Assembly: GCA_963711565.1 (NCBI GenBank)
Contig: CAVQEQ010000003.1
Coordinates: 1,408,001-1,472,000, forward strand
From: an uncultured delta proteobacterium
Lineage (GTDB): Bacteria > Desulfobacterota > Binatia > Binatales > Binataceae
DNA: 64,000 nt
Direction: 5' to 3'
The translations under genes and the position numbers were made by a program. The notes beneath the pieces were generated by a model. It was given only the letters and a program-made list of their open reading frames with translations. It was not told the origin of the DNA and searched no databases. This document shows positions 2,706 through 57,169 of the stretch, piece by piece; positions within the stretch are counted from its first letter, which is position 1; every line of letters begins with the position of its first letter.

Positions 2706-4700
2706 CTAAGATGAGGTCCGGAGGCGGCGGGTGTCGCCTACTCGGGTCGTAACGCCGATGTGATCGAAGTGATCGAGCAGCGCGATTGCGAACTTGCGCG
2801 ATGCGCCCAGCAGGTCGCGGAATGTCGCAGCGGTGATTTCCGGGTGAGTCGCGAGATATTCGACCAGGCGATCCTTTGCGGTGTCGGCGGCGGCGCGGCT
2901 GAAATACAGATCGGTGGCTATTTTCATGACGCGACCCTCACGCTCCATCGCGAGCAGCACGGTTCTTAGATGAGGGAGCTGCCCGGAGGGAATTTTCAAA
3001 GCCTCGGCCAGCTGCTTGAGATCCGGGGGCTGGAATTCTGCGCGCGTCAGCGCGGCTTCGATTTTTCCACCGAGCGTTTCGGCGTCACCGCCTAGTTGCA
3101 CGCGATGACTTTTCAAGCGCAGCACACTTTCCTCGCGCACAATTTCTGACTCATGGCTGAGGCGATCGACGATCGGGCGGAACGCGCGCGCGCCGATTTC
3201 GTAGGGCAGCCGCGTGCGCAGCGCTTCCATCTCGAGGCCCGGCGATAGCGGCTCGGTTTTGTGGTGCACTGCGAGCTCGTCGAGCGCGAAGCGTTTGAGC
3301 GCATCCCGTCTGGTGCGCGTGGTGAAAGCTTCTTCGTCGCCGACTGACAGCTTAATGAAGCGCTGCGCTTCGCGAAGCGCTACTTCGGCCTCCGCGTCGG
3401 GGATGTTCATGAGGGTTGCGATGCTTGTCGTGCCGAGCGCGAAACTTTCCTGCAGATTGATCAATGCTTCGAGCGCATTGCCGCCGGACGAATCCTTGAG
3501 CGTGCGGAGATTGGCGCGATAGGACTCGATCGGCTTGCGGACGCGGCGCCCCAGCGGATTCAACACGATGCCGCCGCCGAGAGTGCGCGAATTGGTTTCG
3601 TCGCGGATGACGAAGCGGTCGCCCGCCAGCGCGACGACAGGGTCCTCGGTCACGAGTTGCACGAGACCAGCGGCTTTGGGCGCGATCGAATAGTGGAGCG
3701 GGCCGCCGTGCCCGCTCTCTTCAGCGGCGGGCACGGCGGCCCGCCCCACTACTCCTGCCTCCTCGAGCACGATCGCACGCGCGATGGTCTCGGCAGTACC
3801 GATGAACAGTCGCACACGGGTGTTGTTCTTGAGCGCGCGCTTGGCGGCGGGACGAATCTCGAGCCATGCGTCGAAGCGCGAGGTCGCGGCGTCGAGCCGC
3901 TCGTCGGCCAGCACGTCGCCGCGGGAGAGATCCAGCTTTTCGGCGCCGGTGAGATTGAGCGCGACGCGCTGGCATAGACCGGCGCTCTCGACCGGGTCCG
4001 AATGCACCTGGATCGAACGCACGCGCACCTCGCTTCCCGACGGGAGCACGCGGAGCTTGTCGCCGACGCGCACCTCGGCGCCCATCGCAGTGCCGGTCAC
4101 GACGATGCCGTGTCCTTTGATGACGAACGCGCGGTCGAGTGGCAGCCGGAAGATGCCGGTGGCGCGCCGCGCCTGGAAGCCGTCGAGCTGTCGGACGATC
4201 TCGGCGCGTAACTGGTCGAGCCCCATGCCGGTGATCGACGAGACCTCGATGACCGGCGCGCCGGCGAGCGTGGTGCCGTCTGCCAGCAGTTCGATTTCAT
4301 CGCGCACGTCGCGGATGCGCGCGGCGTCGGCAAGGTCAGCTTTGGTGATCACGAAGATGCCGCGGCGCGTGCCGAGCAGATGCAGGATGTCGAGATGCTC
4401 CTCGGTCTGCGGCATCACGCCGTCGTCGGCAGCGACGGTGAACAGCACGAGATCGATCCCGTGTGCGCCGGCGAGCATATTGCGGATGAAGCGCTCGTGG
4501 CCGGGGACGTCGACGACGCCGGCGCGAGTGCCGTCGGGCAGTGTGAAGTAGGCGAAGCCGAGGTCGATGGAAATCCCGCGCTCCTTTTCCTCCTTGAGGC
4601 GATCGGTGTCCTGTCCCGTGAGCGCCCTGATCAGCGCGGTCTTGCCGTGATCGATATGGCCGGCGGTGCCGATGATGGCGTGAGTGGTGGGAGAAGCCAT
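2706..4700 (-). CDS. selB: Selenocysteine-specific translation elongation factor
   Basis: [37 protein letters not shown]-terminal winged helix [20 protein letters not shown]; start moved to ATG 4700. Confidence 0.97.
3691..3751. repeat. REP/MITE-like palindrome inside selB (25-bp arms, 24/25 complementary, 11-nt loop)
   Basis: tagtggagcgggccgccgtgcccgc-N11-gcgggcacggcggcccgccccacta read directly. Confidence 0.85.
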
Positions 4701-4764
4701 CGTGGTGCGAATGTTATACTGCTCGGCGCGTGAGCCAAAGCGCGGATCGTGAAAGGGGAAGGGA

Positions 4765-5889
4765 GTGGGAAAGGCAACACGGGGACTTTGGATTTTCGGA
4801 CTAACTGCGATCGCGCTCGGTGGCTGCGGTGGCGCGCAGAATCGGCAGTCTATGCTTCCGACGGCGCAGATTGCGGCGCCGCTCAAGCTCTGTCCATCCG
4901 CGACCGCGCCGCCGAACGACCTTCTCGCCAACCCCGGCTTCATACAATTCGCGGTCTCGGTAACGGACTCGACGGGTAAGCCGGTCACCGGTCTGAAGCA
5001 ATCGGATTTCGCAGCTCACGAGGGCGGTCAAATTCTGCCGATTCAGTACTTTCATGAGGAGCCCGACGGCGCGCCAACGTCGATCGTCATCGTCATGGAC
5101 TTATCGGTATACATGGCCACCGGACTGGTCCCCCATCTGCGCAAAGTCGAAGCGGTTCAAAAAATGCTGCCTGGCGCGGTGAACAAGCTGAATGGGTGCG
5201 ACGAAATTGCGATATTGGTGTTTGGCGGCAACGAGTTTGCGGACGAGCATGCTAGCAGCCAAACGCTGAATCCTGGCGCTTACGAGGACCCTCATCCAAC
5301 ACCGATCAGGCTGATACAGCCCTTTACGACCGACCATCAACTGGCGCTGATGCGTCTGGAGTATCGGACAGCAACCGGGCTTGCGCCGCTATACGACGGG
5401 ATCCAACAAGGACTGAACGTACTGGAGTCGGCTCATTATCAGAATCGCGCGCTGATCGTTATTACCAATGGAGCGGACGACGCGAGCGAGGTCGAAAAGG
5501 AGGACCTGATCGCCAGCATCAACCAGAGCCGTGTGCCGCTTTACGCGATCGAACTTGGCAAACCCAACGCCCCCGCCTTCCGTAGTCCTCCTACCATGGT
5601 GATTCTCCCATATCCGATTCCCATCAAGATTGGAGACAGCCCACTCGTCGATACAGGAACGCTCGTGAAGCTGACGGCGCCGAACGGCGGCCAGTTGTTA
5701 ATCGTTCCGCACCCGACGTACGACCCCGCCGTGACGCTGAATGACGAGCTCAATTCGACGGTGACGGCTCTCAACCACGGGTACTCGATCGGAGTAGTCG
5801 CGCCCTCGGGAGCGGCGCGCCCCGAGATTGTCCTTGCGAACCGACCTCAGATCAGGGTGAGAGCGCACGCGGTTCCCCGCTTGCAATAG
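4765..5889 (+). CDS. VWA-domain lipoprotein
   Basis: Lipobox LGGC; VSVTDSTGKPVTGLKQSDF, SIVIVMDLS, LYDGI, RALIVITNG typical of VWFA-related proteins; MIDAS degenerate. Confidence 0.75.
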   Translation: MGKATRGLWIFGLTAIALGGCGGAQNRQSMLPTAQIAAPLKLCPSATAPPNDLLANPGFIQFAVSVTDSTGKPVTGLKQSDFAAHEGGQILPIQYFHEEPDGAPTSIVIVMDLSVYMATGLVPHLRKVEAVQKMLPGAVNKLNGCDEIAILVFGGNEFADEHASSQTLNPGAYEDPHPTPIRLIQPFTTDHQLALMRLEYRTATGLAPLYDGIQQGLNVLESAHYQNRALIVITNGADDASEVEKEDLIASINQSRVPLYAIELGKPNAPAFRSPPTMVILPYPIPIKIGDSPLVDTGTLVKLTAPNGGQLLIVPHPTYDPAVTLNDELNSTVTALNHGYSIGVVAPSGAARPEIVLANRPQIRVRAHAVPRLQ

Positions 5890-11238: not shown

Positions 11239-11928
11239 ATGGACGCTGCCCTGAAATTCCTGGAACCCTACCAACTGCATCCTGTCGTAGATCATTTCTC
11301 GATGGCGCTGCTGATTGTCGCCGTGCTGATCGATCTCGTCGCCAGCGCGGCACCGAATCGTACCTGGCTTCGCTACACCGCCTTGTTGCTGATGATCCTC
11401 GGTGCGATCGCTGCAGGAGCTTCGTATTTCACGGGCGATATGGAAGCCGACCGCATCTGGGACGCGCTGGGGCAACCGGCCAAAGATGTGCTCAGCAGGC
11501 ACGCGAAATTGGGCGAGTATCTCGCGATTATCTTCGGTGTACTCGCAGTGTGGCGAATTCTGATCCAGGCGTTCGGCTTCATGGCAGGATCGCGCGGGAT
11601 CTATCTCATCTTCGCTCTCGTGGCGATCGTGCTGCTCGGTTACCAGGGGCATCTCGGCGGCATACTCGTGTTCGATTACGGCGCCGGCACCGCGCTGATG
11701 GCGGCTGCTCCCGTTCCGTCGGAGGCCGCAAGCCCTCAAGCGGCGTCCACCGCGGCGGGACCGATCCCGACAGTGTCCGTGCCGACTCCCCAGCCCACGG
11801 CAAGCGCGCCGCCGCCTGTTCCCGCAGCGTCAGCTTCAACATCGATGGGGTCGCCAAAGCCCGTCAGCGCGCCGACGCCAGTCCCGAGTGTTCAGCCCTC
11901 GGCCGCGCCGAGTGGAGCGAGCATGTAA
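11239..11928 (+). CDS. DUF2231-family membrane protein with Pro/Ala-rich tail
   Basis: LHPVVDHFSMALL, FTG, H, GHLGGILVFDYGAG; AGGAG SD. Confidence 0.8.
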   Translation: MDAALKFLEPYQLHPVVDHFSMALLIVAVLIDLVASAAPNRTWLRYTALLLMILGAIAAGASYFTGDMEADRIWDALGQPAKDVLSRHAKLGEYLAIIFGVLAVWRILIQAFGFMAGSRGIYLIFALVAIVLLGYQGHLGGILVFDYGAGTALMAAAPVPSEAASPQAASTAAGPIPTVSVPTPQPTASAPPPVPAASASTSMGSPKPVSAPTPVPSVQPSAAPSGASM

Positions 11929-11995
11929 TCGCGGACCGGTTGAGGTATCCGCGTATCCCTCGCGGCTCAGTCTGAAGAGAGAGCAAGGAGTAGTT

Positions 11996-13162
11996 ATGAC
12001 CCAGCGTCTCGGTTTTGGCGTGTTCCTCGCGCCGCATCATCCTATCGGTGAGCATCCCACGCTCCAGCTTCAGCGCGATCTCGAACTGGCCAAGTGGCTC
12101 GACGAGCTGCAATACGACGAGTTCTGGGTGGGTGAGCATCACTCGGCGGGATGGGAAACGATTGCGTCGCCGGAAATGTTCCTGGTCGCCGCGGCGGAGC
12201 GCACCAAGCGAATCAGGCTCGGCACGGGCGTCGTGTCGATTCCGTACCATCACCCGTTCAACGTCGCCCAGCGCATCGTTATGCTCGATCATCTGAGCCA
12301 CGGCCGCGCGATGCTCGGGGTCGGCCCGGGCGCGCTGCCGTCGGACGCCGTGATGCTCGGGATCGATCCGATGACGCAGCGCGACCGAATGGACGAGGGC
12401 CTCGGCGTCATCCTGCGCCTGCTAAATACAGACGAGCCGTTCAGTTACACCGGCTCGTGGTTCGAGCTGCACAACGCCGCGCTGCAGATTCGTCCGCTGC
12501 AAGAAAAAATTCCGATCGCGGTCGCTTCGACGATTTCGCCGTCGGGGATGAAGACCGCGGGCAAATACGGCGCGGGCGTGCTGTCGGTCGCCTCATACTC
12601 CGAAGAAGGGCTGATGGCGCTGCCGACGCAGTGGAATTTCGGCGAGACGTTGGCGAAGGAATACGGCAACACGATCGATCGCGCGAACTGGCGAATCGTG
12701 ATGCCGTTTCATCTCGCGGAATCCAAAGAACAGGCGATGCGCGAAGTCGCGGCTGGACTCCAGAGATGGCAGAACGAGTACGTCGTCGGCATTCTCGGCA
12801 CGCCGAATCGCCCGACGTTTCCCGACGGCTACGAGGCCGCCAAGCGAATGAGCGAATATGGCGGCGCGATCTTCGGCACGCCGGAGGACGCGCTCGAACG
12901 CATCGCGCGCCTGCAGAAACTCTCGGGCGGCTTCGGCACAATCCTGAGCTTCGCCCATGACTGGGCGACGCGCCCGCAAATGATGCGCAGCTACGAACTC
13001 CTCGCGCGCTACGTGATGCCGCGATGCCAGGGGCTGATCAAGCCGATCGAAGCATCGGCCGCTCGCGTCAGCGCCAACAAAGCGGAGCTGATGGAAAAAG
13101 CGGGCGGCGCAATCCTGAAGGCAATCCGCGACTACAACGCGGTACACCCGAGACAGAAATAA
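11996..13162 (+). CDS. LLM class flavin-dependent monooxygenase (LimB-like)
   Basis: WVGEHHSAG, RIRLGTGVVSIPYHHP, LDHLSHGR, GVGPGALPSDA; AAGGAG SD before ATG 11996. Confidence 0.9.
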   Translation: MTQRLGFGVFLAPHHPIGEHPTLQLQRDLELAKWLDELQYDEFWVGEHHSAGWETIASPEMFLVAAAERTKRIRLGTGVVSIPYHHPFNVAQRIVMLDHLSHGRAMLGVGPGALPSDAVMLGIDPMTQRDRMDEGLGVILRLLNTDEPFSYTGSWFELHNAALQIRPLQEKIPIAVASTISPSGMKTAGKYGAGVLSVASYSEEGLMALPTQWNFGETLAKEYGNTIDRANWRIVMPFHLAESKEQAMREVAAGLQRWQNEYVVGILGTPNRPTFPDGYEAAKRMSEYGGAIFGTPEDALERIARLQKLSGGFGTILSFAHDWATRPQMMRSYELLARYVMPRCQGLIKPIEASAARVSANKAELMEKAGGAILKAIRDYNAVHPRQK

Positions 13163-13182
13163 AAGGCCGGCCTGGCTTTGTC

Positions 13183-14184
13183 TTAGCGCGACGGCGCCGC
13201 GGAATGCTGGAGCACGGGATCGCCCGACATCAACTGCTGCGCCTTGCGCAGCGCCGCTTCAGTCTCGCGCAACAAGTCGGCAAACACTTCGGCGGCGGGT
13301 TTGATCGCGTGAATCAGTCCCGCGCCCTGCCCGGTCGGCATGAACGTACGATTGGGATCTACGTCGTGGCCGCCGCGTCCGGTGTAGTTCATGACTCCGT
13401 TGCGGGACGAGACCTGCGCCTGCATCGGGAATGCCTGAATCTTCGACGGGTCCTTCTCCCACTCGAGCGCATACTCGGTGCGGATTACGCGACAGGTCTT
13501 GCCGGTGTAGGCGCGCGTGCGCAGGGTCGAATCCTCGTGCGCCTTTACGATCGCCTCGCGATAGCCTTGCGCCGCCTGCGCCTCGGGCGTTGCGATAAAG
13601 CGCGTGCCGATCACGACGCCCTGCGCGCCGACCGTCAGCGCCGCCGCTATCTGCCGTCCATCGGCAATTCCGCCCGCGGCGAGCACCGGCAACTTCACCG
13701 CGTCGATCATCTGCGGCACCAACGACAGCATTCCGATTTCGCCGGTGTGACCGCCCGCCTCGGTGCCTTGCGCGACGACCACGTCGGCGCCCGCATCCTG
13801 CGACTTGACGCCGTGATGCACCTTGCCGCACATCACGACGATCTTCATTCCGTTGTCGTGCATCACCTTGACGAATTCCTGCGGCACCGAGAGCCCGGCG
13901 ACGAAGACCTTGACCTTTTCTTCGATCATCACGGGCACGTGCGGGCGCATCATGTCGGGAATCGGCGCGAGCAGATCGACGGCGAACGGCTTGTCAGTCA
14001 GTTCGCGAGTCTTGCGGATTTCCGCGCGCAGATCGTCGGGGCTCAGCGACGCGGCGCCGATAACGCCAAGGCCGCCGGCGTTGGAAACCGCGGCGACCAG
14101 CTTGTGCATCGCGACGCCACCCATCCCGGCGAGCAGGATCGGATACTTGATTCCAAAGTAATCGCAAATCGGCGTATGCAGCAT
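13183..14184 (-). CDS. Nitronate monooxygenase / FabK-like flavin oxidoreductase
   Basis: AAVSNAGGLG, VAQGTEAGGHTG, AAGGIADGR, GTRF, GQGAGLI. Confidence 0.9.
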   Translation of the reverse strand: MLHTPICDYFGIKYPILLAGMGGVAMHKLVAAVSNAGGLGVIGAASLSPDDLRAEIRKTRELTDKPFAVDLLAPIPDMMRPHVPVMIEEKVKVFVAGLSVPQEFVKVMHDNGMKIVVMCGKVHHGVKSQDAGADVVVAQGTEAGGHTGEIGMLSLVPQMIDAVKLPVLAAGGIADGRQIAAALTVGAQGVVIGTRFIATPEAQAAQGYREAIVKAHEDSTLRTRAYTGKTCRVIRTEYALEWEKDPSKIQAFPMQAQVSSRNGVMNYTGRGGHDVDPNRTFMPTGQGAGLIHAIKPAAEVFADLLRETEAALRKAQQLMSGDPVLQHSAAPSR

Positions 14185-14317
14185 CGAGACGTTCTCCAAT
14201 AGTGAGCCGTCTGTGCGACTGGCTCCTCATGACTTCTTAGTTGGCGGGTGCGGAGCAATCAAGCGTGTCCGCGGCGCGATGCTGACCTGTCCCCTGAAAC
14301 TCGCCAGCGGTAGAGAC

Positions 14318-15415
14318 CTAAATATCCTCGGGGCCCGGGTAGTACTTCCCATCGCCGAGCGAATCGACCGCGGCCCAGAACTCAGGACCGCCCGGCTTCA
14401 TCGGATCCTCGAGCGCCCAGGCCTGCCGCTTGTAGTTCCAGCTCTCCGGCCTCAGCCGCTTGGCTTCCTCGAAATATTTCTGCGCCGCCTCCGCGTGTCC
14501 ATGCTCGAACAGAAACTCACCGAGCCTGAAATTCGCCGCCGCGCTGACCTGTGTGTCGTCCGGCGTATGCATTCGCCTGAGCACTTCCGCCTCGCCGAGC
14601 GCGTAACGGCTTTCCGATCCCTTCGCGACCCAATCGCGAAGCGCGTCGAGGTAAGCCTTACGCTTTGCCTGCAGCTCGTTCATCGCGTCGATCGGAATCG
14701 AGAAGTTGGTGCGATTCATCTTGCGGAATGCGTCAGTGACGCCGGCGGGTTCGCTCGGCCGTACGATCTTGCCGCGCTCATCGATCCAGACGGCGGTCGG
14801 CACGTTGACCATGTCGTAAAGCTCGGCGACGAGATGCCGCCGATCGATCAGGCACGGATAGGTGGGCTTGGCAGCCTTGATCCACGGCTCGGTCGCCGCA
14901 TTGCCGCCACTGTCGAATGCGATCGCGATCGGCACGAATCCTTTTGGCCCGAGTTCTTCGTAGAGGGCCTGCCAGACTGGCAGGTCAAAGCGGCATCCTC
15001 ACCACGACGCCCATGAAACGACGAAAACTTTCTTGCCGCGATAGTCGGACAGCGAATGCATCTTGCCGTCGAGATCGGGCAGGCTGAAATCCGGCGCGTC
15101 GAGCGAGGTCAGCATCCGCTTTCTCTCGGCCGCGGCCTCGCCGAAGCACCATGCGCCAAACTCCGCGTCCGTCACGACAGGTTGTCCGAGCAGACTAGCC
15201 AGCGCCGCGAGATTGTAACGCCCGCCCGCAACGAACTCGCTGATCCGCGCGTCAGGCACCGGCACGCACACGTCGCCCCTGCAGAATCCCTGCGGCTTGA
15301 ACTCCCACCCGCTGACCCGCTTCAGATCGTCGCCGTCAAACCACAACCCGCCGCCGGTCGATTCGGCATCGACGCCGCTCGTAACGCGCTCGCCGTATAT
15401 AATGTCGACTGCCAT
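14318..15415 (-). CDS. TlpA/ResA-like thioredoxin-fold selenoprotein (WAxxUGC motif; Sec UGA at 15001-14999), 365 aa
   Basis: ORFs 14999..15415 and 14318..14935 are in the same frame, separated by one TGA: APDFSLPDLDGK..SWASW*GCRFDLPVWQALYEEL. Confidence 0.88.
14968..14984 (-). promoter_or_regulatory. Candidate bacterial SECIS hairpin
   Basis: CCUGCCA-GUC-UGGCAGG starting 14 nt after the UGA; loop begins with GU. Confidence 0.6.
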
Positions 15416-15485: not shown

Positions 15486-18400
15486 TTATATCCACAATAT
15501 CGCGCCGCTCGCGGGACGCCCCGTGCTCTCTCGGACCGCTCGCACATAGAACCTGATCTGCGCGCGATATTCGTCGAGTCGCGGCGCGACTTCTACATCG
15601 GTCTTGAAATCGACCACCGTCCAGACCACGCCATCGACGGTATTCTCCGCGAACGCGAGATCCGCGATTCCTTCGACCGCGGTGCCGTCTTCGAGCCGGA
15701 TCATCAGCGGACACTCACGCATCACGGTTTGCGCAGCCGTCGCGCGAAGCATCAGCGGAGATTTGAGCGCAGCTTTCACCGCGGTCACGGCGGCTGCGAT
15801 CTCGTCGTCGGGCGCGCCGATCATCTTGGCCGCGCTCGCCGCGATCTTGCCGAGCTCGCGCGCGTCCGCGTCGAACGGCGCTCGCAGCATCGTCAGATGC
15901 ACGAGCGTGCCGAAGCGTTTGCCATGCGGGCGGCCGCGATCGCGACGCGTCTCTTCAATCGCGATAGTCTCGGCGGATGCCGGTCCGTCCGCCGGCGCGG
16001 CGAGCGCGAGCTCGGTTGCAGTCGCGACGTTGATACGCGGAGTCGTTCCCGCCGCGAGCATCGCCGTCCGGCTCGCGCTCCACGCTGCGTGCATTTTTTC
16101 GCCGCGGTCCGACACGAGTTTGTTCTCGTCGGCTTGCAGCAGCTTGTCCTGCCGCAGCCCCATCTTCTCCTCGACGTTGAGAATCAGCAGCCGCGGATCC
16201 CACCAGACCACTTGATGCGCCCCCTGTTGCACGCGATGTAGTCCCGGCGCCACCGATTTCACTTTGCCCGGCGCTTTTGGTGGACGCGTCAGCACGCTAT
16301 CGTCGCCGAATTCGGGGCATCCGGCAGGATGCGCCGACAACGGGGCGCGCCGTTCCGTATTCGCCGGATAGACGACGGGATTCAGCCGCGCGAGCCAGCC
16401 GTCGCTCTCCTCGTCGCCAACCGCCGGCACCACGAGCAGATCGCGCGCGCGGGTGGCAGCCACGTAGAGCAGGCGAATCGATTCTTCAACGTCGCGGTCA
16501 TGCTCTTTCGCCGCATGCTCCTGCAGTTCGCGCGGCGCGCATCCGGCAAGTTCCATCGCGGCCAGCTTCGACGACGGCTCGATATACCGCGACGCGTCGG
16601 CGCGAGTCTCGTTGCAGGTGATATCGGCGAGAATCACGACGGGAAACTCGAGACCCTTCGCGCGATGCACCGTCATTATCCGCACGCCCTCGGTCCCTTC
16701 CTCGACGATCGGCGTCTCGCTCGCCTCGTCGCGTTCAGCGCGCGCTTCGAGCTCATCGACGAACGCCCGAAACGACGTCGTGCCGCCGCGCGCTTCGTAA
16801 CGCCGCGCCTGGTCCATGATTCGCATGATATTCGCGAGCGCCTGTTCGCCGGTCGGCCAGATCGCGAACCCGGCATGCGCACGCGTCGTCGCCAGCAGCA
16901 TCGCGATCGTCTCCGCGATCGGCCGTCGATTCCGTCCGCGATGCAGATTCTTGATCACGTCGAGCGCGCCCTTCACTTCCTTCAGGCTGTCGGGAAGATC
17001 GTCGGGCAGCTTGCGAAACGGATGCAGGCTGCCGATGGTCATTCGGAATTCGAGCAGCGCCGCATCCGACAGCGCGAACACGGGACCGCGCAGCGCTGCG
17101 AACACCATCAACTCGTCGTCGGGCCGCTCGATCGCTCCCAGCAGATTGCGGATCGCGATCACCTCTTCGCGCTCGTTGAACGATCCGCCCTTGACCAGCA
17201 CGTGCGGCAGATGCCGCGCCTCGAGCGCGCGCAGATACGGCCGCGTCACGTCGCGCCCGAACGAATTCATGCGGCGAAACAGGATGCAGATATGGCGCGG
17301 GCGAATCGGCACCCGCACATCGGGCGCCTCGCGATCGGTCACCGTCCATCCGCTCTCATGCACCAGCCATCGCGCGTACGCGGCGATCGCCTCCGGAATC
17401 GACTCGTCGATTTTCCAGTTCACGACGCGGCCGAAATCGCCGTACGGCTCCGGCACCGGCAGCACGACGATCGACGGCTGGGTGGCGGGCTCGGCGCGAT
17501 ACCGCATCAAAGGCGCGTAGGCCGGCTGCGTGCCCGACTCCTCGCTCATCAACGGCGCGAACGCAGCGTTGACCATCGTTTGAATCGCGGGCGTCGCGCG
17601 AAAGCTGACTGTCAGATGCTCGAGTTGCGCACCATGCATCAGCAGCAGTTGTTTGACGCCCTGATAGAGCGAAACGTCGGCGCGGCGAAAACGGTAAATC
17701 GATTGTTTCGGATCGCCGACGATAAATAATTTCCCGGCGATCGGCTTGACCTTCAGCCAGTTGGTCTCGGCGGGATCGGCCGACGACAACAGCAGAATGA
17801 TTTCCGCCTGTAGCGGGTCGGTATCCTGGAATTCATCGACGAAAATATACGTGAAGCGATTCTGCAGCTCGGCGCGTACCGCGGCGTTGTCGCGAACGAG
17901 ATTGCGCGCGACGAGCAGCAAGTCGAGGAAATCGAGGCGTCCAGCGCGCCGCTTCAGGTCTTCGTAGATACCGACGATCGGCCACAATTCGTCGCGCAGC
18001 AGAGGCGCGAGATTCGCGCCCGCGTCGTCGCGAAACTTTTCCAACCGCGCGCGCAGCTCGGCGCGACGCCGAAACACTTCTTCGCGCTCGACCGCGCCGA
18101 AGCCGCCGCCGTATCCCTTCCAATCCCAGCGGCGCCCCGTGCAGAGAGCGATCAGCACAGATTCGAGCGCGTCGTAATCGCGCCCGCGCACCGCCTCGAG
18201 CCGGGTCGCCTCCGCCACGGGCCGCGCGATCGCGTCGAGGCCCTTCGCCAGCCAGTCGTCGTCCTCGCCAAGTTCGGAAAGTTTGCCGAGCGCTTCGACC
18301 TCCGCGATTATCGCGTCGATCTCGGCGTCGCGCGCGAAGGGCGAATGTACCCACGGCGAATCGAAGTCGCGCCAGTTCATCAGCTCGAGCGCCGCGCGGC

Positions 18401-18947
18401 GCGCGATCGCACGCGGCCCCGTTCGCGCCGACAGATCGCGCCGGCGCAGCAGCCGCCGCATCCCCTCGCCCGGATTGTCCAGGATTTTTTCAAACCATCG
18501 CTCGAAGGCGGCGTCGAACATCTCACCCGCAACGTCCTCGGGCGCGACTTCGAACATCGGATCGACCTGCGCTTCCACCGGCCGCTCGCGCAGCAGGTCG
18601 GCGCAGAACGAATGAATCGTGCCGATGCGCGCTTCTTCCAGTTGCTTGAGCGCGAGGTCGAAGCGCGCGCGCGCTTCGCTCGCAGGCTCAGTGCCTTGCC
18701 GCGCGCGTTCGATTTCCGCGCGCAGCCGCAGTTTCAGCTCGCCGGCAGCCTTTTCGGTGAACGTCACCGCGACGATCCGCGCCAGTTCGCCCCGACCCGA
18801 CCCGATAACTGATACGATTCGATTCACCAGCGCCGTGGTCTTGCCGGTGCCGGCCGCCGCCTCGATCACGAGCGTGACATCGAGGTCGTCGCGAATACGA
18901 TCGCGCACCGCCTGATCGGAGATGATTGCCGGGTTCGCGAGCGTCAT
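15486..18947 (-). CDS. addA: AddA-like UvrD helicase / PD-(D/E)XK nuclease
   Basis: EAAAGTGKT, TFTEKAAGEL, VDEFQDT, VGDPKQSIYRFR, MTVHRAKGLEFP, YVAATRAR, C-terminal GIADL..VDFKT; ATGA overlap with addB. Confidence 0.88.
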   Translation of the reverse strand: MTLANPAIISDQAVRDRIRDDLDVTLVIEAAAGTGKTTALVNRIVSVIGSGRGELARIVAVTFTEKAAGELKLRLRAEIERARQGTEPASEARARFDLALKQLEEARIGTIHSFCADLLRERPVEAQVDPMFEVAPEDVAGEMFDAAFERWFEKILDNPGEGMRRLLRRRDLSARTGPRAIARRAALELMNWRDFDSPWVHSPFARDAEIDAIIAEVEALGKLSELGEDDDWLAKGLDAIARPVAEATRLEAVRGRDYDALESVLIALCTGRRWDWKGYGGGFGAVEREEVFRRRAELRARLEKFRDDAGANLAPLLRDELWPIVGIYEDLKRRAGRLDFLDLLLVARNLVRDNAAVRAELQNRFTYIFVDEFQDTDPLQAEIILLLSSADPAETNWLKVKPIAGKLFIVGDPKQSIYRFRRADVSLYQGVKQLLLMHGAQLEHLTVSFRATPAIQTMVNAAFAPLMSEESGTQPAYAPLMRYRAEPATQPSIVVLPVPEPYGDFGRVVNWKIDESIPEAIAAYARWLVHESGWTVTDREAPDVRVPIRPRHICILFRRMNSFGRDVTRPYLRALEARHLPHVLVKGGSFNEREEVIAIRNLLGAIERPDDELMVFAALRGPVFALSDAALLEFRMTIGSLHPFRKLPDDLPDSLKEVKGALDVIKNLHRGRNRRPIAETIAMLLATTRAHAGFAIWPTGEQALANIMRIMDQARRYEARGGTTSFRAFVDELEARAERDEASETPIVEEGTEGVRIMTVHRAKGLEFPVVILADITCNETRADASRYIEPSSKLAAMELAGCAPRELQEHAAKEHDRDVEESIRLLYVAATRARDLLVVPAVGDEESDGWLARLNPVVYPANTERRAPLSAHPAGCPEFGDDSVLTRPPKAPGKVKSVAPGLHRVQQGAHQVVWWDPRLLILNVEEKMGLRQDKLLQADENKLVSDRGEKMHAAWSASRTAMLAAGTTPRINVATATELALAAPADGPASAETIAIEETRRDRGRPHGKRFGTLVHLTMLRAPFDADARELGKIAASAAKMIGAPDDEIAAAVTAVKAALKSPLMLRATAAQTVMRECPLMIRLEDGTAVEGIADLAFAENTVDGVVWTVVDFKTDVEVAPRLDEYRAQIRFYVRAVRESTGRPASGAILWI

Positions 18948-21900
18948 GGCATCTCGCGCAGCCGCGTCAGCGACTTGAGCCGCACTTTCGGTTTGATTTT
19001 CGAGCGCCGCTCCTCGTACGGGCCGCACACGCGCTTGTAGTCGCACCAGTCGCATTCGCGATCGTCCGGCGCGGCGGGCAGAAAGCCGGCTTCGAGCGAC
19101 TCCTTGACGATCTCGACGAAATCGCGCGACGCGCGGCGGGCCTCGTCGTTGATCTCGACGACACGCTCCTCGTAGCCGCCCGCGGCGGTGCAGTAGTAGA
19201 GCCGTCCGGCGTAAATTTTCTCGCGCAGAACTTGTTCGGCGGCGAGCGCGTACAGCACCGGCTGCAGCGTCTTGCCGCCGCCGATGATGAAGTTCTTCTC
19301 GGCGCGCACTTTCCCGGTCTTGTGATCGGTCACGCGAATTCGCCCGGCCGCATCGCGCTCGAGCAAATCGATCGACCCGCGCAAACTCAAGCCGCCTTCG
19401 ATCGCGACCGGGTCCGCCGAGCTGTGCGGGTCCGCCTGCGCGCGATCGCGCAGCCCAAAGCCGAGCTCGAACCACTCGGGACGCCAATGTTCCGGGTCGT
19501 CGGCCGCCCGGCGCATCCACTCGCGCAGGTCGGCGCGGATACCTTCGATGCCGTCGAGCCACACGCGCTCGATCGCCGGCGCGAGATCCTCATGCCATCG
19601 CGCCGCAACTTCGTCGAGCTTCTCGTCGAGCAACCCCGACGCGTCATCCAGGTCGTCAGGCGTCACCGGCAGCACGTCGAGCTCCCGCAGCGCCGACAGG
19701 ATCTCGTACTGCACCTCGGCGAACAGGCCGCCGCGCGTGAGCGGATCGAGCGTGTCAATCGCCTCGGGCTCCTCGCGCGGTTCAAGCCGATGAACCGCTT
19801 GCAGAAAAAAACGATACGGGCACGCCGCGAAATTTTGCAGCGCGGTCGGCGAGTACGAACGCGCGCTCAACTGATGCTTGCCCAGCGCCGCCAGCGCGGC
19901 CGGATCAGGATCGACAAGGCCGTCGGCCGAGGTCCATCGCCGCAGCCACCGGCGCGCCCGCGCGCGCAACGCCCGCCCGAGATGAACGTTCGCGCCCAGC
20001 AAATAGTTCGCCGCGCCTGTGGTGGTATCCGGATCGGCGTCCACCAGTTTGTCGAGCACCGCCAGATCGAATTCCGCGTCGTCGATCGCGTCGGCAGGAT
20101 TCGCCGGCGCCGGCCATGAAAGGCGCGTCACCGGCTGCGATGCGGCGCGCGTCGCCAGCTCGTCGAAGCCGGGCAGGCGGCCTTCCGCAGCGCGCAGAAT
20201 TTCGAGCGCGTAGAAGGACGGCACGCGCGGCCGGCCCTGGTCGAGATCGACTCGCGGATATGAGAACATCACGCGCTCGCGCGCCGCGCCAGCCGCGATT
20301 CTCAATGCGAGTCGCTCCGCACCGACGCGTTGCTCGTTGCGAGCGAGATACGGACTCAGCCGCGCGCGCGACGCATCGGAAAGAATTGGATCCTCGGTCA
20401 GCTTGCGCGGAAACATCCGCTCGGCAAGGCCGGGGACGATGACAACGTCGAACTCCATGCAGCGAGCGCGATTCGGCGGCGCGACGAACACCGCGCCGTA
20501 ACGACGCACGCGCCGCGGAGTTTCGAGACGCCCGAGCCGATCGTTCAGCACGATGCGCACCTCGTCGAGTCCAACCGGACCGACCGGCGCCATCGGCTCG
20601 AGCTCGGCGAGCGCGGCGAGCACCGGCTCGCGATCGCGAATCGCGAGATCGATCAGCGCGCGAAGAAACTTGAGCCAGTCGCCCCAAGTCGCATCGCGCG
20701 GCGCCGCTTCGAGCATCGTGAGGATCGGCATCGCCACTTCGCCGAGATGCGCGAGGTCGAGAATTCGCCGCTCAAGGCCGGCCGCGTGCGCGTCGTCGTC
20801 GGCAAGTTCCTTGCGCCGCGCCGCGAGATCGTTACCGAGACCAGCCAGCCGCTTGCGCCATCGTTCGGCGCTGCCGATCACGGCCGCCTCGACGAGCAGC
20901 CGTTCCCATCGCCACGGCGCGCGCGCGGTTCCGTCGATGACCGGAACGGGATCTGAGGCGAAATTGGAGAGATCAGCATTGCTTGCACTTTCGTCCGCGG
21001 CAACGTCACTCTCGACTTCAAGATCCGACTCAAGCGGCGCCGGCGCGAGTTCCGCGTCCGGACTGACGGTCGGCTCGTCGTCACGCGCGCGATCGGGGTC
21101 GGGCACTTGAGCGAGCGAGAGATATTCGGCAAAGCGCCGCGCCGAAAGATTTTCCGCGGCGCAGCAAAGCAGCGCGAGCATCGCGCGACCGCCCGGCTCG
21201 GGGCGCCGCGCGCCGCGCGCAAAGTAAGCCGGGATCTCGGCGCGGGCGAGCACCTCCTGCAGGTACGGCGCGTAGCGAATCGGATCGTGCAGCAGCACGG
21301 CGATTCGATCGAACGGCACGCCGCGGCGCGCCTCGGCGGCGATTCGGCGCGCGATCTCCACGCACTCGTGCATCTCGCCGGGCGCCGAAATCACCGTCAC
21401 GGATTCGTCAACGTCGCGCTCGGGCGGGGCTGTATTCGCGAACAAATGGGTCTGGAGACGCTCGAGCGACGGCGCGATGCTTTCGTTGACGGTCGGCGAT
21501 AGCGGAGTTGCACGCACGCCGAGAGCGTCTTCGAGGATCGATTGGACGGGCGAGTCGCCGGCGGGAATCGTCGCGAGAATCGACGGCGAACATGCGGCGA
21601 GGGCCGCGATAAAGTCGCGATCGAGCGCGCTGTCCACGGATGGATCGAGCAACAAAATCGGCAGACCGACGAAGCGCGGCGGATCGGGCGCGAGTACCGC
21701 GCGCGTCGCGACTTTAAGCATCCCGGCACGATCGATCAGCTTCGCTTCGGCCAGCTCGGCGTCGAACTGCGCGAGTGTCGCGGCAATCGCGTCGCCCGCG
21801 CCGCCCAGCGCGCGCAGGTCGTCGGCGGCGATGTTGTTCCATCGAAGCTCGATCAGCGTGCGCGCCAGTGCGCGCGAGAAGCCGGGAAGATTCAGCACCG

Positions 21901-22234
21901 GCGCAAAGTGCTCAAGCGCTCCCGACGGGGCGAGGCGGAAGACCGCGCGCGCGGCGACCGCTTCGGCGGCGAGTCCGTCGGCGGGCGCGAGGCCGGTATC
22001 GGCGAGTTCCTCGGCGGCGAGCAATCCGATCAGGCGGTTGAGAGTCAGGCGATGCACCCCGAGCATCGCGCCGCGCGATATTGCAAACGCGCGCACGAGG
22101 TCGTCGGCAGCTTCCTTGACCGACGCGATCACCAGGACTTCGGTGGCGGATGGCTGCGAGTCGAGCCACGCGCGGGCGGCGGCGATGCGCTTATCGGCGC
22201 GTTCGGAGATTATGATTTCATGAGAGGCTGGCAT
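18944..22234 (-). CDS. addB: AddB-like protein: inactive helicase plus PD-(D/E)XK nuclease with 4 Fe-S cysteines
   Basis: SPTALQNFAACPYRFF, GSIDLLE..DHKTG, LQPVLY, CDWCDYKRVC; adjacent to addA. Confidence 0.82.
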   Translation of the reverse strand: MPASHEIIISERADKRIAAARAWLDSQPSATEVLVIASVKEAADDLVRAFAISRGAMLGVHRLTLNRLIGLLAAEELADTGLAPADGLAAEAVAARAVFRLAPSGALEHFAPVLNLPGFSRALARTLIELRWNNIAADDLRALGGAGDAIAATLAQFDAELAEAKLIDRAGMLKVATRAVLAPDPPRFVGLPILLLDPSVDSALDRDFIAALAACSPSILATIPAGDSPVQSILEDALGVRATPLSPTVNESIAPSLERLQTHLFANTAPPERDVDESVTVISAPGEMHECVEIARRIAAEARRGVPFDRIAVLLHDPIRYAPYLQEVLARAEIPAYFARGARRPEPGGRAMLALLCCAAENLSARRFAEYLSLAQVPDPDRARDDEPTVSPDAELAPAPLESDLEVESDVAADESASNADLSNFASDPVPVIDGTARAPWRWERLLVEAAVIGSAERWRKRLAGLGNDLAARRKELADDDAHAAGLERRILDLAHLGEVAMPILTMLEAAPRDATWGDWLKFLRALIDLAIRDREPVLAALAELEPMAPVGPVGLDEVRIVLNDRLGRLETPRRVRRYGAVFVAPPNRARCMEFDVVIVPGLAERMFPRKLTEDPILSDASRARLSPYLARNEQRVGAERLALRIAAGAARERVMFSYPRVDLDQGRPRVPSFYALEILRAAEGRLPGFDELATRAASQPVTRLSWPAPANPADAIDDAEFDLAVLDKLVDADPDTTTGAANYLLGANVHLGRALRARARRWLRRWTSADGLVDPDPAALAALGKHQLSARSYSPTALQNFAACPYRFFLQAVHRLEPREEPEAIDTLDPLTRGGLFAEVQYEILSALRELDVLPVTPDDLDDASGLLDEKLDEVAARWHEDLAPAIERVWLDGIEGIRADLREWMRRAADDPEHWRPEWFELGFGLRDRAQADPHSSADPVAIEGGLSLRGSIDLLERDAAGRIRVTDHKTGKVRAEKNFIIGGGKTLQPVLYALAAEQVLREKIYAGRLYYCTAAGGYEERVVEINDEARRASRDFVEIVKESLEAGFLPAAPDDRECDWCDYKRVCGPYEERRSKIKPKVRLKSLTRLREMP

Positions 22235-26032: not shown

Positions 26033-26696
<664 letters not shown>

Positions 26697-40542: not shown

Positions 40543-41637
40543 CTAATTCAACACCGGTCCGTAAATGTTGAGTATGTTCGGCGACGGAGTTGGCGATGGC
40601 GTCATACTTGACGACGATGTGCCGGTCGGAGACGGCGTCGCGGAGATCGTCGGCGTCGCCGTCATAGTCGAGGACGACGTCGGAGTCATGCTCGGCGTCG
40701 CTGTGATGGTTAACGTTGGCGTCGCGGTCAGGGTTGCCGTGGCGGTTGCCGTTGGCGTCGCGGTCCGCGTCGCCGTGGATGTGGCGGTAGAGGTTGGCGT
40801 CGCAGTCATCGTCGTCGTGGCGGTTGCCGTCGGCGTCGGAGAGGTCACTGCAGTACCGAATGCGACGCCGCTGAGTTTTACCTTTTGCGGCGACTTTAGT
40901 GCGTCGTCGGCGATCTCCAGGCTTCCGCTCACCTTGGTTCCCCTGGATTTGCTTGCGCTGACCGGATTGAACGTCACTGAGACCTGGCAGTTGGAACTCG
41001 CGGCCAGCGAGCTGTCGCAGCTATTGGTTGTTATGGAGAACGGGCCCGAAGGCGTGATCGAGGTGATGGCCAATGCGACGGAATCAGGATTGCTCACGGT
41101 TACAGTTTTGGCGCTCGAGGCGGTATCGACGGCAACCTTGCCGAACGAGAGCGAAGACGGCTTGATCGCGATCTTTCCCGCCACCCCGGTCCCCGTCAAG
41201 GCGATCGATTTGAGGGTGGCATCGGCGGAATCGCCAATAACCAGGCTGGCCGACCTGGAGCCGAGCGCGGTGGGAGTAAAGGTCAGCGTCACGTCGCATC
41301 CGCTCCCGGGCGAGAGCGTCGCGGTGCAATTGGTGGTGGAGCTGAAGTCTCCCGGGTTGGCGCCGGTGATCTGAGAAGTCAATTCGGTGACGGTGGCCCC
41401 ATCTTTCGGATTCGAGATTTTAACCGTCTTGGTCGGGCTGGTTGCCCCGGTGACTCCGAACACCTCTTTCTTAAATTTGATCTTGTCAGGCGAAACCGTG
41501 AGACCTTTCGAGGCCGCCATGACCACCGACGCGGATGCTATGATGGTCAAAAGCGCGATGGGTACGATTATCGCGCCGGCGATCGCATAAACCGCGTGCG
41601 CTCGCCAACCAATCGGCCAACGAAATCGATTGTTCAA
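40543..41637 (-). CDS. Secreted protein with two choice-of-anchor-D (Ig-like) domains and Thr/Pro tail
   Basis: TTG start after GGGAGG; two P..L.F...V.N...C...C...F.P...L.G.G units; (TPTATA)n tail. Confidence 0.8.
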   Translation of the reverse strand: MNNRFRWPIGWRAHAVYAIAGAIIVPIALLTIIASASVVMAASKGLTVSPDKIKFKKEVFGVTGATSPTKTVKISNPKDGATVTELTSQITGANPGDFSSTTNCTATLSPGSGCDVTLTFTPTALGSRSASLVIGDSADATLKSIALTGTGVAGKIAIKPSSLSFGKVAVDTASSAKTVTVSNPDSVALAITSITPSGPFSITTNSCDSSLAASSNCQVSVTFNPVSASKSRGTKVSGSLEIADDALKSPQKVKLSGVAFGTAVTSPTPTATATTTMTATPTSTATSTATRTATPTATATATLTATPTLTITATPSMTPTSSSTMTATPTISATPSPTGTSSSSMTPSPTPSPNILNIYGPVLN

Positions 41638-41650
41638 CCGACCCTCCCGC

Positions 41651-42107
41651 CTATCGAGTGCAAAGGAGCGCGTCGGCGTAGTTCTCGGCGGTGTTGATGA
41701 TCCGGACTTCGTGGTAAGAATTGTCGACAACCATCGCGAGCGGACAGCCTCCGGCCGGGTTAGTGATGAACAGATAGCCATTTCCTGCGGTGTTGAGACA
41801 ATAAGTACCGGATACGCTCGCGGCAAAGTCGCTGTAGGTGGTGGTGCCGCCCGAATCGTTGTTCTGTGCCTGGTTAACCACGGTGAAGTCTCCAGTACCG
41901 TTTAAGGTGACTACTGCCACACTGCTGCCGGAGACGTTGGAAGAATTGGTTTTGATCTCGACGCATACGTAGGTGCCGTCAAGATCGGCCAAGGTGGTGG
42001 AGGAGCTGGTCGAGCAGGAAGGAGTGGGCGAAGGGCACGTCTGGGCGTAGGCGCCTGCTGCCGTTGAACAGGAAAAAGACGGCAAACAAAAGCAGAATCT
42101 TCTTCAT
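41651..42107 (-). CDS. Secreted 6-Cys protein of unknown function; +1 frameshift near 42065 in the signal peptide
   Basis: ATG 42107 gives MKKILLLFAVFFLF, one base out of frame with TAAGAYAQTCPSPTPSC. Confidence 0.7.
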
Positions 42108-42234: not shown

Positions 42235-45200
42235 TCATTTCTTCGGCTCCTTGCCGGTGCCCTCGAGCGTGACGCTCTTGTCGTCATCCGACTCGAGGTT
42301 GGTGTCTATAGTGAGCTTGCCCTTGTACTTCATCGCGGCGGTCGGCGTGAAGATCACCGACACTTCGCAACTTCCCGGCGGCACATCCTTGGACTTCGGG
42401 CCGAGGTCGTCGTCGTTACAGGTCTGAGTGATGCTGAAGGGGCTCGTCACGCCCGATTCCATCTCGATCAGAATCGGCAGCGGGGTCTTTTTCTTTTTGA
42501 CCTTGCCCGCGTTGGTGACCTTGACCGACTTGACTTTGTCCGAGCCCACCTCGACATTGCCGAAGTTGAGTGACTTGGGCGAGATCTTAAGCTTGCCGGG
42601 GACCGGAGTCGGCGTTGCAGTTGGCGTCGCGGTGGCGGTCGCGGTGGCCGTCGCGGTTGCGGTTGGAGTCGGAGTCGCAGGCGTCGTGACTACGTTGAAG
42701 CCGTCCGACGCGCTCGATGCGACCAGCGAGCCGGTGCCGGCGAAGGTCGCGGACAACGTCTCTATACCGGCGCCGCTGGCGGTTATCGCGCAGGTCGCGA
42801 TACCTTGCGCGTTGGTCGCGGCCTCGCACGTCTGGCCGCAGACCGAGAAGTTGATCGTCTCGCCAGAGAGCGCTGTGGCCGGGTTCTGCGACACGTCCGT
42901 AAGCGACGCGATCAGGTTGACGGTCTGTCCCTGGATCGCGCCTTTCGGACTTTGATTTAGGCTCATGAAGGTCACATCCGAGCCCGCACCCCAGGTTACC
43001 AGCGCCGGTGAGGACGTAACCACGTTGCTACTAATCGTCGTGGTGGCCGTCACGTTGTCGATTCCCTCGTGAGCGCCGACATAGCTGAACGACGCATCGC
43101 CGCTCGCGTTGGTATTGGCGACGCCGATGGTCGGATTTGCCCCTGTCACAGAAAATTTCACCGGAGTCCCGGCCGTGACGGAGCCGAAGTGCACGGAAGC
43201 CGTCAGCGTCTGCGTGGTGCCCTGCGCCGGGTTGGGCGAGACCGTAGACGGCGCCAGCACGATCGACGGCGTCGTGAGGTTGGTCGCGTAAGTGCAATCG
43301 CCCACAGTGTCTGTGATTCTGAACACCGCATTGCCATCGGCGAGATACACGCAACCGTCGGGACCGAAGACCGTAATCAGAGCCTGGATGCCGACGTTGC
43401 TGTTCGCCAACAGGGCGCCCGCGCTGGGCGGACTAGTGGTGAGATCGAACGTCCCCAGCCCGCTGTTGTTGGGGTTGATAGCCAGACTGCCCGAGATCAG
43501 ATACTGCGCGCCGCCGCCCGCAGCGGTTCCCGCCGCCAGCAGGATATCGTCGGCCGCATTGATGCTGGAAAGCGTCGTGACCGTTGCCGGTTGGGTGGTG
43601 TTGGTGCCGCCGACTTCCACCACGGTGCCGGCGTAGTCGCCGCTGAACTGGGTGCCGCCGAATGTGTAGATGGTTCCGTCGGGCGCGAAGGTGATCTGGT
43701 AGTTGCCCTGGGTGGGCAGCGTCGCGTAGCTCGAGAGGGTGGCGCTGCCACTGCCGGGATTGGAGATCCGGTACAGTGTGTTACTCCCAGACGGTCCCTC
43801 GCACGCATCATTCACGAACAAGTCGCCGGAGATCGGATCGGCCGCCATGTCCTCCGCGCAAGGGATACCCGTCACCACGGTGCCGACCACCGTGCCGTTC
43901 GACGGGTCGAGCTCGATGACACCGCCGGTGCTGGTGCCGCCGGTGGTTGCGCCCTGCGCCGCGTAGAGATTTCCGCCCTCGTACACCAACTGTCCCACTG
44001 CGGAGCCGAGCGTGCTGTTGAGCAGGGTGCTTGGGCCAGCTACCCCACCGCCCGAAGGAAGCTTGTAGATATCGCCGGTTGGCAAGTCGGACACGTAGAT
44101 ATTGCCCGAGGTGTCGAACGCGATTCCACCTGCGCCCGGGCAGCCCCCGAAGTTCACCTGGCCGTCGCCATAGGAGAAGTTGTTCGCCTGCAGGCCGGTC
44201 ACGTATGGAGTTACCACGTATCCTGAGGCCGCGATCGGGGTGCCGTTGGCGCATCCCGACTCAGGCCCATCGCTGAAGGTCACCTGAGTGGTTGCAGGGA
44301 ACGGCAGGTTGCCATCGGTCACGTCGGTTGCGCTGTAGGTCACAGTTTCGTTGTTGGTGTCGGTCGCGGTGAACACGACCTGTCCGCTGCTGTTGGTGAC
44401 GGGCGGGTTGGGTCCGGTGATGGTTGAGCTGCCGGTCTGATTAAGCTGAATGAGCTTGCCCGGCGATGGACGCGAGAGCGAATCCTCGAGCGTGACCGTG
44501 ATCTCGGTGGTGGTCACGCCGTCGGCAGTCACGGTGGTCGGGAACGCGCCAATACCGGCACTGGTCGCCGGCGGCGTTACGAACTGGATAACCGGTGTTT
44601 CGGCAAGCGTTTCGGTGTCGGTCGTGTCGGTTGCCGTTAGCGTGGGGCTCTCGACCGTAGAATCTGTCACCTGAAACTCGGCATTGCCGTCGCCGTCTGA
44701 TGTTGCGCTGGGTGGAGTGATACTGGCATGACTGCCCGAACTCGCGGTCAGTGAAACGGTCTTACCGCTGACCGGAAAATCGTTGGCGTCGCGCAAGAGT
44801 ACCTGCACTGTTCCAGAGCTGGTCCCATCGGCCGGGACACTGCCGTCCGGATTACCGCCGGCAGCCACCGCGGTGGAACCAGTCGTGCTGACGGCGCCGA
44901 GTGTCTCGCCACTGAGCGCCAGCCTTAGCTGGAGAAAGTCGGGCGAGCCGAGGCCGACATGCGCGAAGTCGGTGCCCATGCTGGCCGGACTATGGAACGC
45001 GTCGGTGCCCGCGAGCGGGTACAGAAATATGTTTGCGTTCGCGAGGTTGGTACCAAGCATCGCATTGAGCTCGGCTGCGAACGCCGCCCACTCCGGCGCC
45101 GCCATGCTGGTGCCGCCGAAGCGAAGCCCGCTCGGACAACCACCGTCATCGGCCTGGCAAATGAGAAGACCTTGCGCCGGGTCGGCATCAACCGCCACGT

Positions 45201-49120: not shown

Positions 49121-51331
<2,211 letters not shown>

Positions 51332-51340
51332 GATCTCAGC

Positions 51341-51376
51341 GGAGCGGCGTTTCAAGTTATTTTGAAACGCCGCTCC
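51341..51376 (+). terminator. Hairpin after katG
   Basis: Perfect 15-bp stem ggagcggcgtttcaa/ttgaaacgccgctcc, 6-nt loop; no U-tract. Confidence 0.55.
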
Positions 51377-51535
51377 CGCGTCTTGCCCTCGTGATCCCCA
51401 GGTCGCATCAGCTATCTGGATCGAAGGACAAAATCCTAAGCTCTCGTTGTCCGAGAGAGCTTTGCACAACTTGGCTGGACGCACGCAGGCAGAAACAGAA
51501 TCTTGAACCGCGCGCAGAAGAGCGCGCTGCATAAG

Positions 51536-51600
51536 GACCCTCACCCTTCGGCAGGCTCAGGGCAGGCTCCTCGATCCTGTCCCATTCTGGGAGAGGGGAA
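51536..51600. repeat. Degenerate REP-like element related to 48389..48513
   Basis: ccctcaccc ... cccattctgggagagggg with an internal cccttcggcaggctcagggcagg unit. Confidence 0.5.
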
Positions 51601-51662
51601 AGGCGTCGCGCAGTGACCGCAAAGGTCTCTCGGACATTGGCGAGCCGGGCGATCTCGAAGGG

Positions 51663-51706
51663 CAGAAAGACGAACGCCGAATCCGGTTGTCCGGATTCGG
51701 CGTTCG
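51663..51706 (-). terminator. Rho-independent terminator of the 51725..53314 gene
   Basis: Perfect 16-bp stem cgaacgccgaatccgg/ccggattcggcgttcg followed by TCTTTC on the minus strand. Confidence 0.7.
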
Positions 51707-51724
51707 ACGTTTGGTTTCTACCAG

Positions 51725-53314: not shown

Positions 53315-53930
53315 GTTGTCTAACCCCCGCCGAGTCGAATCGGTGCCCCGTCTGCTGCGCCTATCTGCCTAAAAACCCCCGCGACCAGTCAGTTAGTTCC
53401 CCACTCGGCAAGCCCTGCTCGAGCCACGCCAAGGTCCGGAAATCCACCGGACGCGCTTCGGTGGTCGTACCTACACTGATCAGATGACAAATTCAAGTGC
53501 GACGTAATCCTTCGTTCATGATCGCTATCAACCGACAAAACAGCTTTCAGTCGTGCGCACTGTCCCCGATCGAAAAGGCACCTTATTCATTCACGCTCGA
53601 AGATGGCAAGTGCAGCCCAAAAAAGTGGCGCACAAATCCGTTGGCCGCCGGCTTCGAATCAGATCGACCGCGGACTGGCGACACCCATGTGTATCGAACT
53701 GACGCAACTGAATCCGAGAGGACCAATTTTCACGCGACTATTTTCGGACTATTGCAGAGATGTGACGGGCGCGTGCACCCTGCTTGACAAGGTACGCAGG
53801 GGAATGGTAGCTAAGCCGCGTTCGTAGGTTTCGTGCGCGCGAATGGGGAATGAGTGTCTGACGCTTGCCTGAGTGAGCAATCAGGCGAGGAGTTCGACGT
53901 AACCGCGAGGGCTCCAGCTTGGGGGTGTCT

Positions 53931-55856: not shown

Positions 55857-55996
55857 AAGTCGAATGGACTGATCGGGCGGCTGTGGCGTATGCTACAGCC
55901 GCCTTTGTTTTTCCGGCGCGATGAGGGCATTGCCGCAAGCCTCGTGCGATCGCTGTTCGTTTCGCCCACATCATGGCGCCGGCCGCGTATCCCGCG

Positions 55997-56512: not shown

Positions 56513-56515
56513 CGG

Positions 56516-57097: not shown

Positions 57098-57169
57098 TCG
57101 TTCCGCGAAGCACCGGCTCTCGTACTTCCGAAGACATGCGCTGTGAAGCTTGCGAGGCTGGATGCTAGC

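Follow-up and report, generated by a model that had tools for sequence, protein, structure and literature searches.

Does the TGA codon that separates two open reading frames on the minus strand of this DNA end a protein, or is it decoded as selenocysteine within a single gene? An earlier note had proposed that a UGA joins the two ORFs, with 226 further codons following in frame. Within the window (the whole stretch of DNA analysed, 64,000 nucleotides), minus-strand translation from 15415 to 14318 gives 138 codons, the TGA at 15001–14999, 226 codons more and a TAG, just as proposed; the strand had been left unstated. The gene and its two predicted active-site positions are:

14318 to 15415, minus strand: whole gene, 365 amino acids with predicted Sec139, a ResA-like WAxxUGC or Prx-like UGC-containing selenoprotein (NF041054, 355.1 bits)
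14999 to 15001, minus strand: in-frame TGA, predicted Sec139, on the first (attacking) Cys of the TlpA/ResA CxxC
14993 to 14995, minus strand: Cys141, aligning, once a one-residue deletion is allowed for, with the second (resolving) Cys

The sequence around the TGA reads VVSWASW-U-GCRFDLPVWQ and holds a WAxxUGC motif (W135-A-S-W-U139-G-C141), and the third-position GC content is coding-like in both halves (0.79 and 0.78). The read-through protein matches the NCBIfam model NF041054 ('ResA-like WAxxUGC motif-containing protein') at E 4.4e-106 over profile positions 9–350 of 354, and exceeds its curated cut-off (300 bits); scored separately, the 138-aa and 205-aa ORFs reach 96.5 and 197.1 bits, respectively. 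The family name given in the earlier note is therefore the right one. A Pfam AhpC-TSA/Redoxin domain (residues 106–219) spans both sides of the TGA. It is very likely that the two ORFs belong to a single gene in which UGA is decoded as selenocysteine. The expectation that gene callers split it is borne out by the databases, where the split form dominates: 109/120 best matches are pieces of 205–231 aa, with 55–61% of the protein covered.

The gene is also very likely a member of a known, already catalogued WAxxUGC family, and the result at sequence level is then an annotation correction: one gene instead of two hypothetical proteins. In the 2008 GOS survey, 'Prx-like (UGC-containing)' (pfam00578) is listed with 46 selenoproteins and 855 Cys homologs and is commoner in non-marine samples (PMC2398784). 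The supplementary sequences of that survey include WASWUGCR proteins with an N-terminal two-Cys segment and C-terminal helices; motif and N- and C-terminal parts are the same, and the family is therefore the same. Comparison with NF041054 and the 2008 family (profile over cut-off, same motif and parts) revealed no difference. A 2022 review catalogues the UGC family as predicted (PMC9312934) and a 2026 review has it as only predicted (PMC13188914). A search of mostly non-subscription literature found no experimental study of the family; the term WAxxUGC did not occur in it, and a term search of the BSepDB paper and of the Haft and Gwadz preprint gave no mention of the family.

The codon at the Sec site was compared in 169 pooled homologous loci (160 fetched and the 9 most distant from the relatives search; some loci may be in more than one set, and there are 129 distinct TGA segments). 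It is TGA in 164 and TGC in 5, and no locus has TGG. By set, TGA was found in 80/80 genome loci at 49–90% identity, in 76/80 metagenome loci fetched with the Cys-homolog alignment (TGC in the other 4), and in 25/26 loci of the relatives search, the window's own included, with one TGC. These counts are not independent events, since the loci come from related lineages. TGA is retained down to about 41% protein identity and is in frame with both halves every time. Full-length database proteins, which by construction contain no stop, carry Cys at the site in 117/120 cases and Trp in three (P0021, P0035 and P0249, reading W-W-G-C). Cys-containing homologs, for which the earlier note had advised a search, thus exist at both levels, and natural Cys versions occur in named myxobacteria (Hyalangium gracile P0161, Myxococcus qinghaiensis P0170), so that the biochemistry is testable without selenoprotein expression. 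Trp at this position, in contrast, had been named as evidence against read-through: none of the 169 loci has TGG, but Trp does stand in the three database proteins. Two of these three entries are single-member JGI clusters, and the Trp entries are probably gene calls made under a code in which TGA is Trp. In a contrast of five genomes, which is not a statistical test, the one with the TGC form (G032, 100% complete) is without selA, selD and an over-cut-off selB, while selA, selB and selD are all present in the four with the TGA form (G027, G036, G037, G040).

The genome examined (4.84 Mb, 94.9% complete) contains the Sec machinery whose presence the earlier note had wanted confirmed, namely selA (570 bits), selD (363 bits) and a tRNA-SeC with anticodon tca (selC, C1:1184871-1184966), in addition to selB, which lies in the window itself:

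2706 to 4988, minus strand: selB, Sec-specific elongation factor, longest ORF (TIGR00475, 366 bits, cut-off 242)

The true start of selB is probably about 100 codons downstream of the longest-ORF start. It lies 9.3 kb from the selenoprotein gene, on the same strand and outside its transcription unit. The position given earlier (about 10 kb away) is therefore correct, but as evidence the proximity carries little weight because a different contig carries selA and selC, and selD lies at a distance of about 150 kb. NF041054 over its cut-off, the Sec machinery and the TGA/TGC interchange in homologs all agree with the read-through that had been proposed, and the case for Sec is carried mainly by codon conservation and the machinery.

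That the TGA is a true stop, as in a pseudogene, two proteins or a sequencing error, or that it is read as Trp, is highly improbable. An internal GTG start does yield the 205-aa ORF, W is found in the three database proteins mentioned, and at least one apparent single-base frameshift occurs elsewhere in the window (in msrB). However, a stop would sever the thioredoxin fold at its active site, which is hard to reconcile with the retention of TGA, in frame with both halves, in nearly all loci. The only tRNA with a UCA anticodon detected in the genome is tRNA-Sec. One independent contig covers the whole stretch without gaps, and none of the 40 differences listed (of 77) falls within this codon.

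The earlier note had also described, 14 nt past the UGA, a hairpin of 7 bp with GUC as its loop, and it is found as follows:

14968 to 14984, minus strand: SECIS-like hairpin with 7-bp stem, GUC loop and closing A-U pair

The hairpin (CCUGCCA-GUC-UGGCAGG) begins 14 nt past the UGA and its loop begins 21 nt past it, which fits the bacterial SECIS consensus. Four bSECIS criteria are published in PMC13188914, and the hairpin agrees with all four (a 3-nt loop that opens with G, a 7-bp stem, a spacing of 21 nt and −10.4 kcal/mol), with an alternative fold competing. Folded alone, it has a z of −3.17 (1/200 shuffles as good). Within 42 nt of context, another pairing and not the hairpin has the lowest predicted energy (z −1.62, 16/200 shuffles), and the 91-nt context gave no folding signal (z 0.13). 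An ad hoc SECIS-like rule is satisfied after 2,520 of the 135,037 TGA triplets of the genome (1.87%), and the hairpin by itself is for this reason modest evidence. The only feature that discriminates is the loop GU, present in 127/129 distinct TGA segments versus 2/5 TGC segments. Cys genes likewise keep the 5-bp core stem intact (5/5); the stem therefore largely follows from the L-P-x-W-Q codons. Two-sided base-pair changes in it are rare. Narrow codon choice in this region speaks for the SECIS: Leu145 is CTG or TTG in 79/79 distinct segments, although 443/1,074 Leu codons farther downstream are CTC, and GAC encodes Asp144 in 77/79. Rfam gave no matches in the 64-kb window, and a promoter/terminator scan detected nothing upstream of the gene. 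Very probably, SelB binds the GU-loop hairpin and inserts Sec139.

What would such a selenoprotein do? The central part of the protein is predicted to adopt a fold of TlpA/ResA type:

14606 to 15124, minus strand: predicted TlpA/ResA-type thioredoxin-fold core, residues 98–270, with D144 and the N-V-P loop kept

An AlphaFold2 model computed from 121 sequences (pLDDT 96.4, pTM 0.92) was compared with known structures. Foldseek returned ResA (2f9s; E 5.5e-11, rmsd 1.4 over 115 columns), and the best folds in VIA were DsbE (3gl3; Z 15.2, rmsd 2.3 over 140) and ResA (2f9s; Z 14.3, rmsd 2.4 over 137). When the sequence was aligned with HMMER to three structures of TlpA/ResA type, U139 fell on the first Cys, in line with the claim that U-x-C replaces the CxxC there, and C141 on the second; a single gap separates G140 from C141. 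A one-residue deletion thus converts CxxC to U-G-C. D144 aligns to a conserved Glu in two of the three structures. N204 and P206 are invariant in 120/120 sequences, and the N-V-P loop aligns with the thioredoxin cis-Pro loop. Cys141 is invariant in 271/271 aligned sequences and Cys188 is conserved in 215/271, while H194, R219, E222, W326 and R330 are conserved at 98–100%. The copy in the window is a short form; some homologs have an insert of 23–27 residues after residue 183.

The protein shares with ResA, TlpA and DsbE(CcmG) the core fold, the positions of the first and second Cys, the acidic residue three positions beyond the second Cys and the V-P loop. It differs from them in having U-G-C and not CxxC, and in its extra N- and C-terminal domains. 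With respect to the ResA, TlpA and StoA models, its score is far below the cut-offs (75.8 versus 170). ResA and TlpA are not cytoplasmic. Unlike these two, the present protein shows neither membrane anchor nor signal peptide: simple hydropathy detected no hydrophobic segment, the 19-residue maximum being 1.01 overall and 0.22 for windows starting in the first 25 residues. Lacking a hydrophobic anchor, the protein is probably cytoplasmic.

A cytoplasmic selenolate-based disulfide oxidoreductase is the mechanism towards which we lean, with moderate confidence in it as a whole. In this scheme the disulfide of the substrate, which may be that of a protein or a mixed one formed with a small thiol, would be attacked by the Sec139 selenolate; Cys141 would then resolve the intermediate, leaving a strained selenenylsulfide in the U-G-C motif. 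If the C-G-C bacilliredoxins are a guide, the U-G-C centre may exceed thioredoxin in oxidising power and lend itself to isomerisation or de-thiolation. BrxA/BrxB are thioredoxin-fold proteins with a C-G-C site and a potential of −130 mV, in which mixed disulfides are reduced via the first, attacking Cys and the second resolves (PMC6178380). The analogy is functional only: the thioredoxin-like fold is common to both, but bacilliredoxins (DUF1094) appear to belong to another sequence family, and no DUF1094 match was obtained in Pfam or NCBIfam scans. Short CXC peptides catalyse disulfide isomerisation, according to a preprint (bioRxiv 10.64898/2026.01.27.701630).

The same selenoprotein might be a peroxidase of the peroxiredoxin or glutathione peroxidase kind, with Sec139 as the residue that reduces hydroperoxides and with the selenenic acid resolved by Cys141 or Cys188. 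There is a related fold and an AhpC-TSA Pfam match, as in BCP/PrxQ and the glutathione peroxidases; AhpC-TSA is the best Pfam family in 121/121 members, with a weak GSHPx match in 106/121, many database entries are auto-named peroxiredoxin and the family was called 'Prx-like' in 2008. Yet the top structure and sequence matches are the ResA/TlpA/DsbE disulfide oxidoreductases, with peroxiredoxin folds following in VIA at Z 11–12 (best row Z 12.2), and the PrxQ and Gpx7 models give about 18 bits (PrxQ 18.4) versus cut-offs of 260 and 207. The peroxidatic motif of peroxiredoxins is PxxxT/SxxC. This motif is absent while the V-P loop is kept, and one of the two proposed resolving residues, Cys188, is not universal. 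We consider peroxidase activity rather unlikely.

The disulfide oxidoreductase core is flanked by two further parts, both of which the earlier note had pointed out, as a GFCRGDVCVP domain and a TPR-like segment:

15131 to 15415, minus strand: N-terminal beta-rich domain, about residues 1–95, with Cys45 and Cys50 on a beta-hairpin (best fold match Z 6.3, under the trust threshold of the tool)
14408 to 14557, minus strand: C-terminal TPR-like helices, residues 287–336, with near-invariant W326 and R330

GFCRGDVCVP was located at residues 43–52, and both its cysteines, Cys45 and Cys50, are invariant in 271/271 sequences. The N-terminal domain gave no Pfam family and no PDB sequence match. The fold comparison ranked highest a hypothetical protein of Synechocystis (5h3k; rmsd 4.0 over 90) and the N-terminal domains of pilus ushers (Z 5.3–5.4), and since all rows are under the trust threshold they show neither a known nor a new fold. 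A resemblance of this domain to a stalk of the copper-amine-oxidase type was considered, but neither a Pfam hit for the piece from the window, a PDB sequence hit nor a row in the fold lists was obtained for it. Among longer proteins with this domain (14 matches), 12 carry Redoxin or AhpC-TSA domains. At the other end, the TPR-like segment corresponds to a weak TPR_2 match at residues 292–324 (E 0.002, below the gathering score), and weak TPR_2 matches were found in 89/121 members. W326 is kept in 119/120 and R330 in 118/120 sequences. Mean-field covariation (effective 146 sequences) is weak; the strongest inter-domain pair, F167-N327, connects the loop that follows strand 2 to the TPR helix, and no clear link appeared between Cys45/Cys50 and Sec139.

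The TPR-like helices may lie next to the active site and determine which substrate is accepted, and the Cys45/Cys50 pair might either re-reduce the centre or stabilise the N-terminal domain; these roles are speculative. Doubtful, too, is the fuller picture that they suggest, a self-contained cytoplasmic selenoenzyme, as opposed to a generic redoxin, in which a U-G-C centre is combined with a TPR-like lid as substrate pocket and with Cys45/Cys50 as a recharging relay. If it were true, an uncharacterised selenium-dependent redox activity of soil lineages (Binataceae, Rokubacteria, Chloroflexota) would be concealed in databases as split genes.

The same residues could be put to a different use, in the handling of a metal or a small molecule, with Sec139, Cys141, Cys45 and Cys50 forming a soft-metal site or with a dedicated catalytic pocket under the TPR-like lid. 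The invariance of the three cysteines, the near-complete conservation of H194, R219, E222, W326 and R330 and the weak F167-N327 covariation are compatible with this, and thioredoxin-fold precedents, deiodinase and Sco, occur lower in the fold list (Z 9.6–10.1). The catalytic features of TlpA/ResA are nevertheless kept, and metal-resistance or pathway genes do not recur nearby, which makes such a role quite improbable.

The closest relatives are from Candidatus Binatus, Binataceae and uncultured deltaproteobacteria. In a phylum-wide draw, 4/201 genomes gave a match at E 1e-30 or better, all of them in the class of the window, and no relatives were found in viral contigs or in plasmids. Genomes of the same genus often contain one or two extra paralogs, 50–59% identical and also with TGA (G003:C6:111065-112051, L026, L029, L099); in some of these an insert of about 25 residues follows residue 183.

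The genes next to the selenoprotein gene were compared across loci. Directly upstream, 70 nt before the start codon, are:

15486 to 22234, minus strand: addB-like and addA-like helicase-nuclease genes

Both products, the AddA-like UvrD helicase and the AddB-like PD-(D/E)XK nuclease, fall short of the curated cut-offs for AddA/AddB. In 56/80 loci, all with at least 63% protein identity, the fetched flank includes addA; among the loci below 61% it does so in 0/19. As addA is confined to closer relatives, its presence is read as lineage synteny, and a functional link to addAB was rejected. A conserved operon was likewise rejected, as the downstream genes vary even among close relatives: in the 80 related loci they include PTPS-family (42/80), sigma-54 (37/80) and response-regulator genes (37/80), with the NMO-family gene of the window in 1/80. 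In the window, positions 11239–14199 encode an NMO-family flavoprotein, a luciferase-like monooxygenase and a DUF2231 protein, a set in common with only one of the 80 loci (L037). Among 99 distant loci the commonest neighbour cluster is found in 12, and no conserved partner gene that would indicate a substrate was detected.

Some further genes of the window may be recorded. An msrB gene (26033–26696, minus strand; SelR domain, E 8e-46) is interrupted, where the N-terminal leader meets the catalytic domain, by what looks like a single-base frameshift, whether an assembly error or a sign of a pseudogene. A protein of 1,535 aa with a pro-kumamolisin activation domain and several Ig-like domains (42235–46842, minus strand) is adjoined by an ASH/Cep192-type Ig-domain protein (40543–41826, minus strand). 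ORFs at 51725–53314 (minus strand) and 53919–55856 (plus strand) gave no Pfam match, and the region 49148–62955 encodes a catalase-peroxidase-like haem peroxidase of 727 aa, in which two peroxidase stretches are present, besides a Wzi capsule protein and an SLBB-repeat polysaccharide export protein. Elsewhere in the genome there is a second candidate selenoprotein (G000:C3:542623, plus strand; L201:659-1267), with a peroxiredoxin-like fold, an H-W-U-P-F-C motif (UxxC) and a similar GU-loop hairpin.
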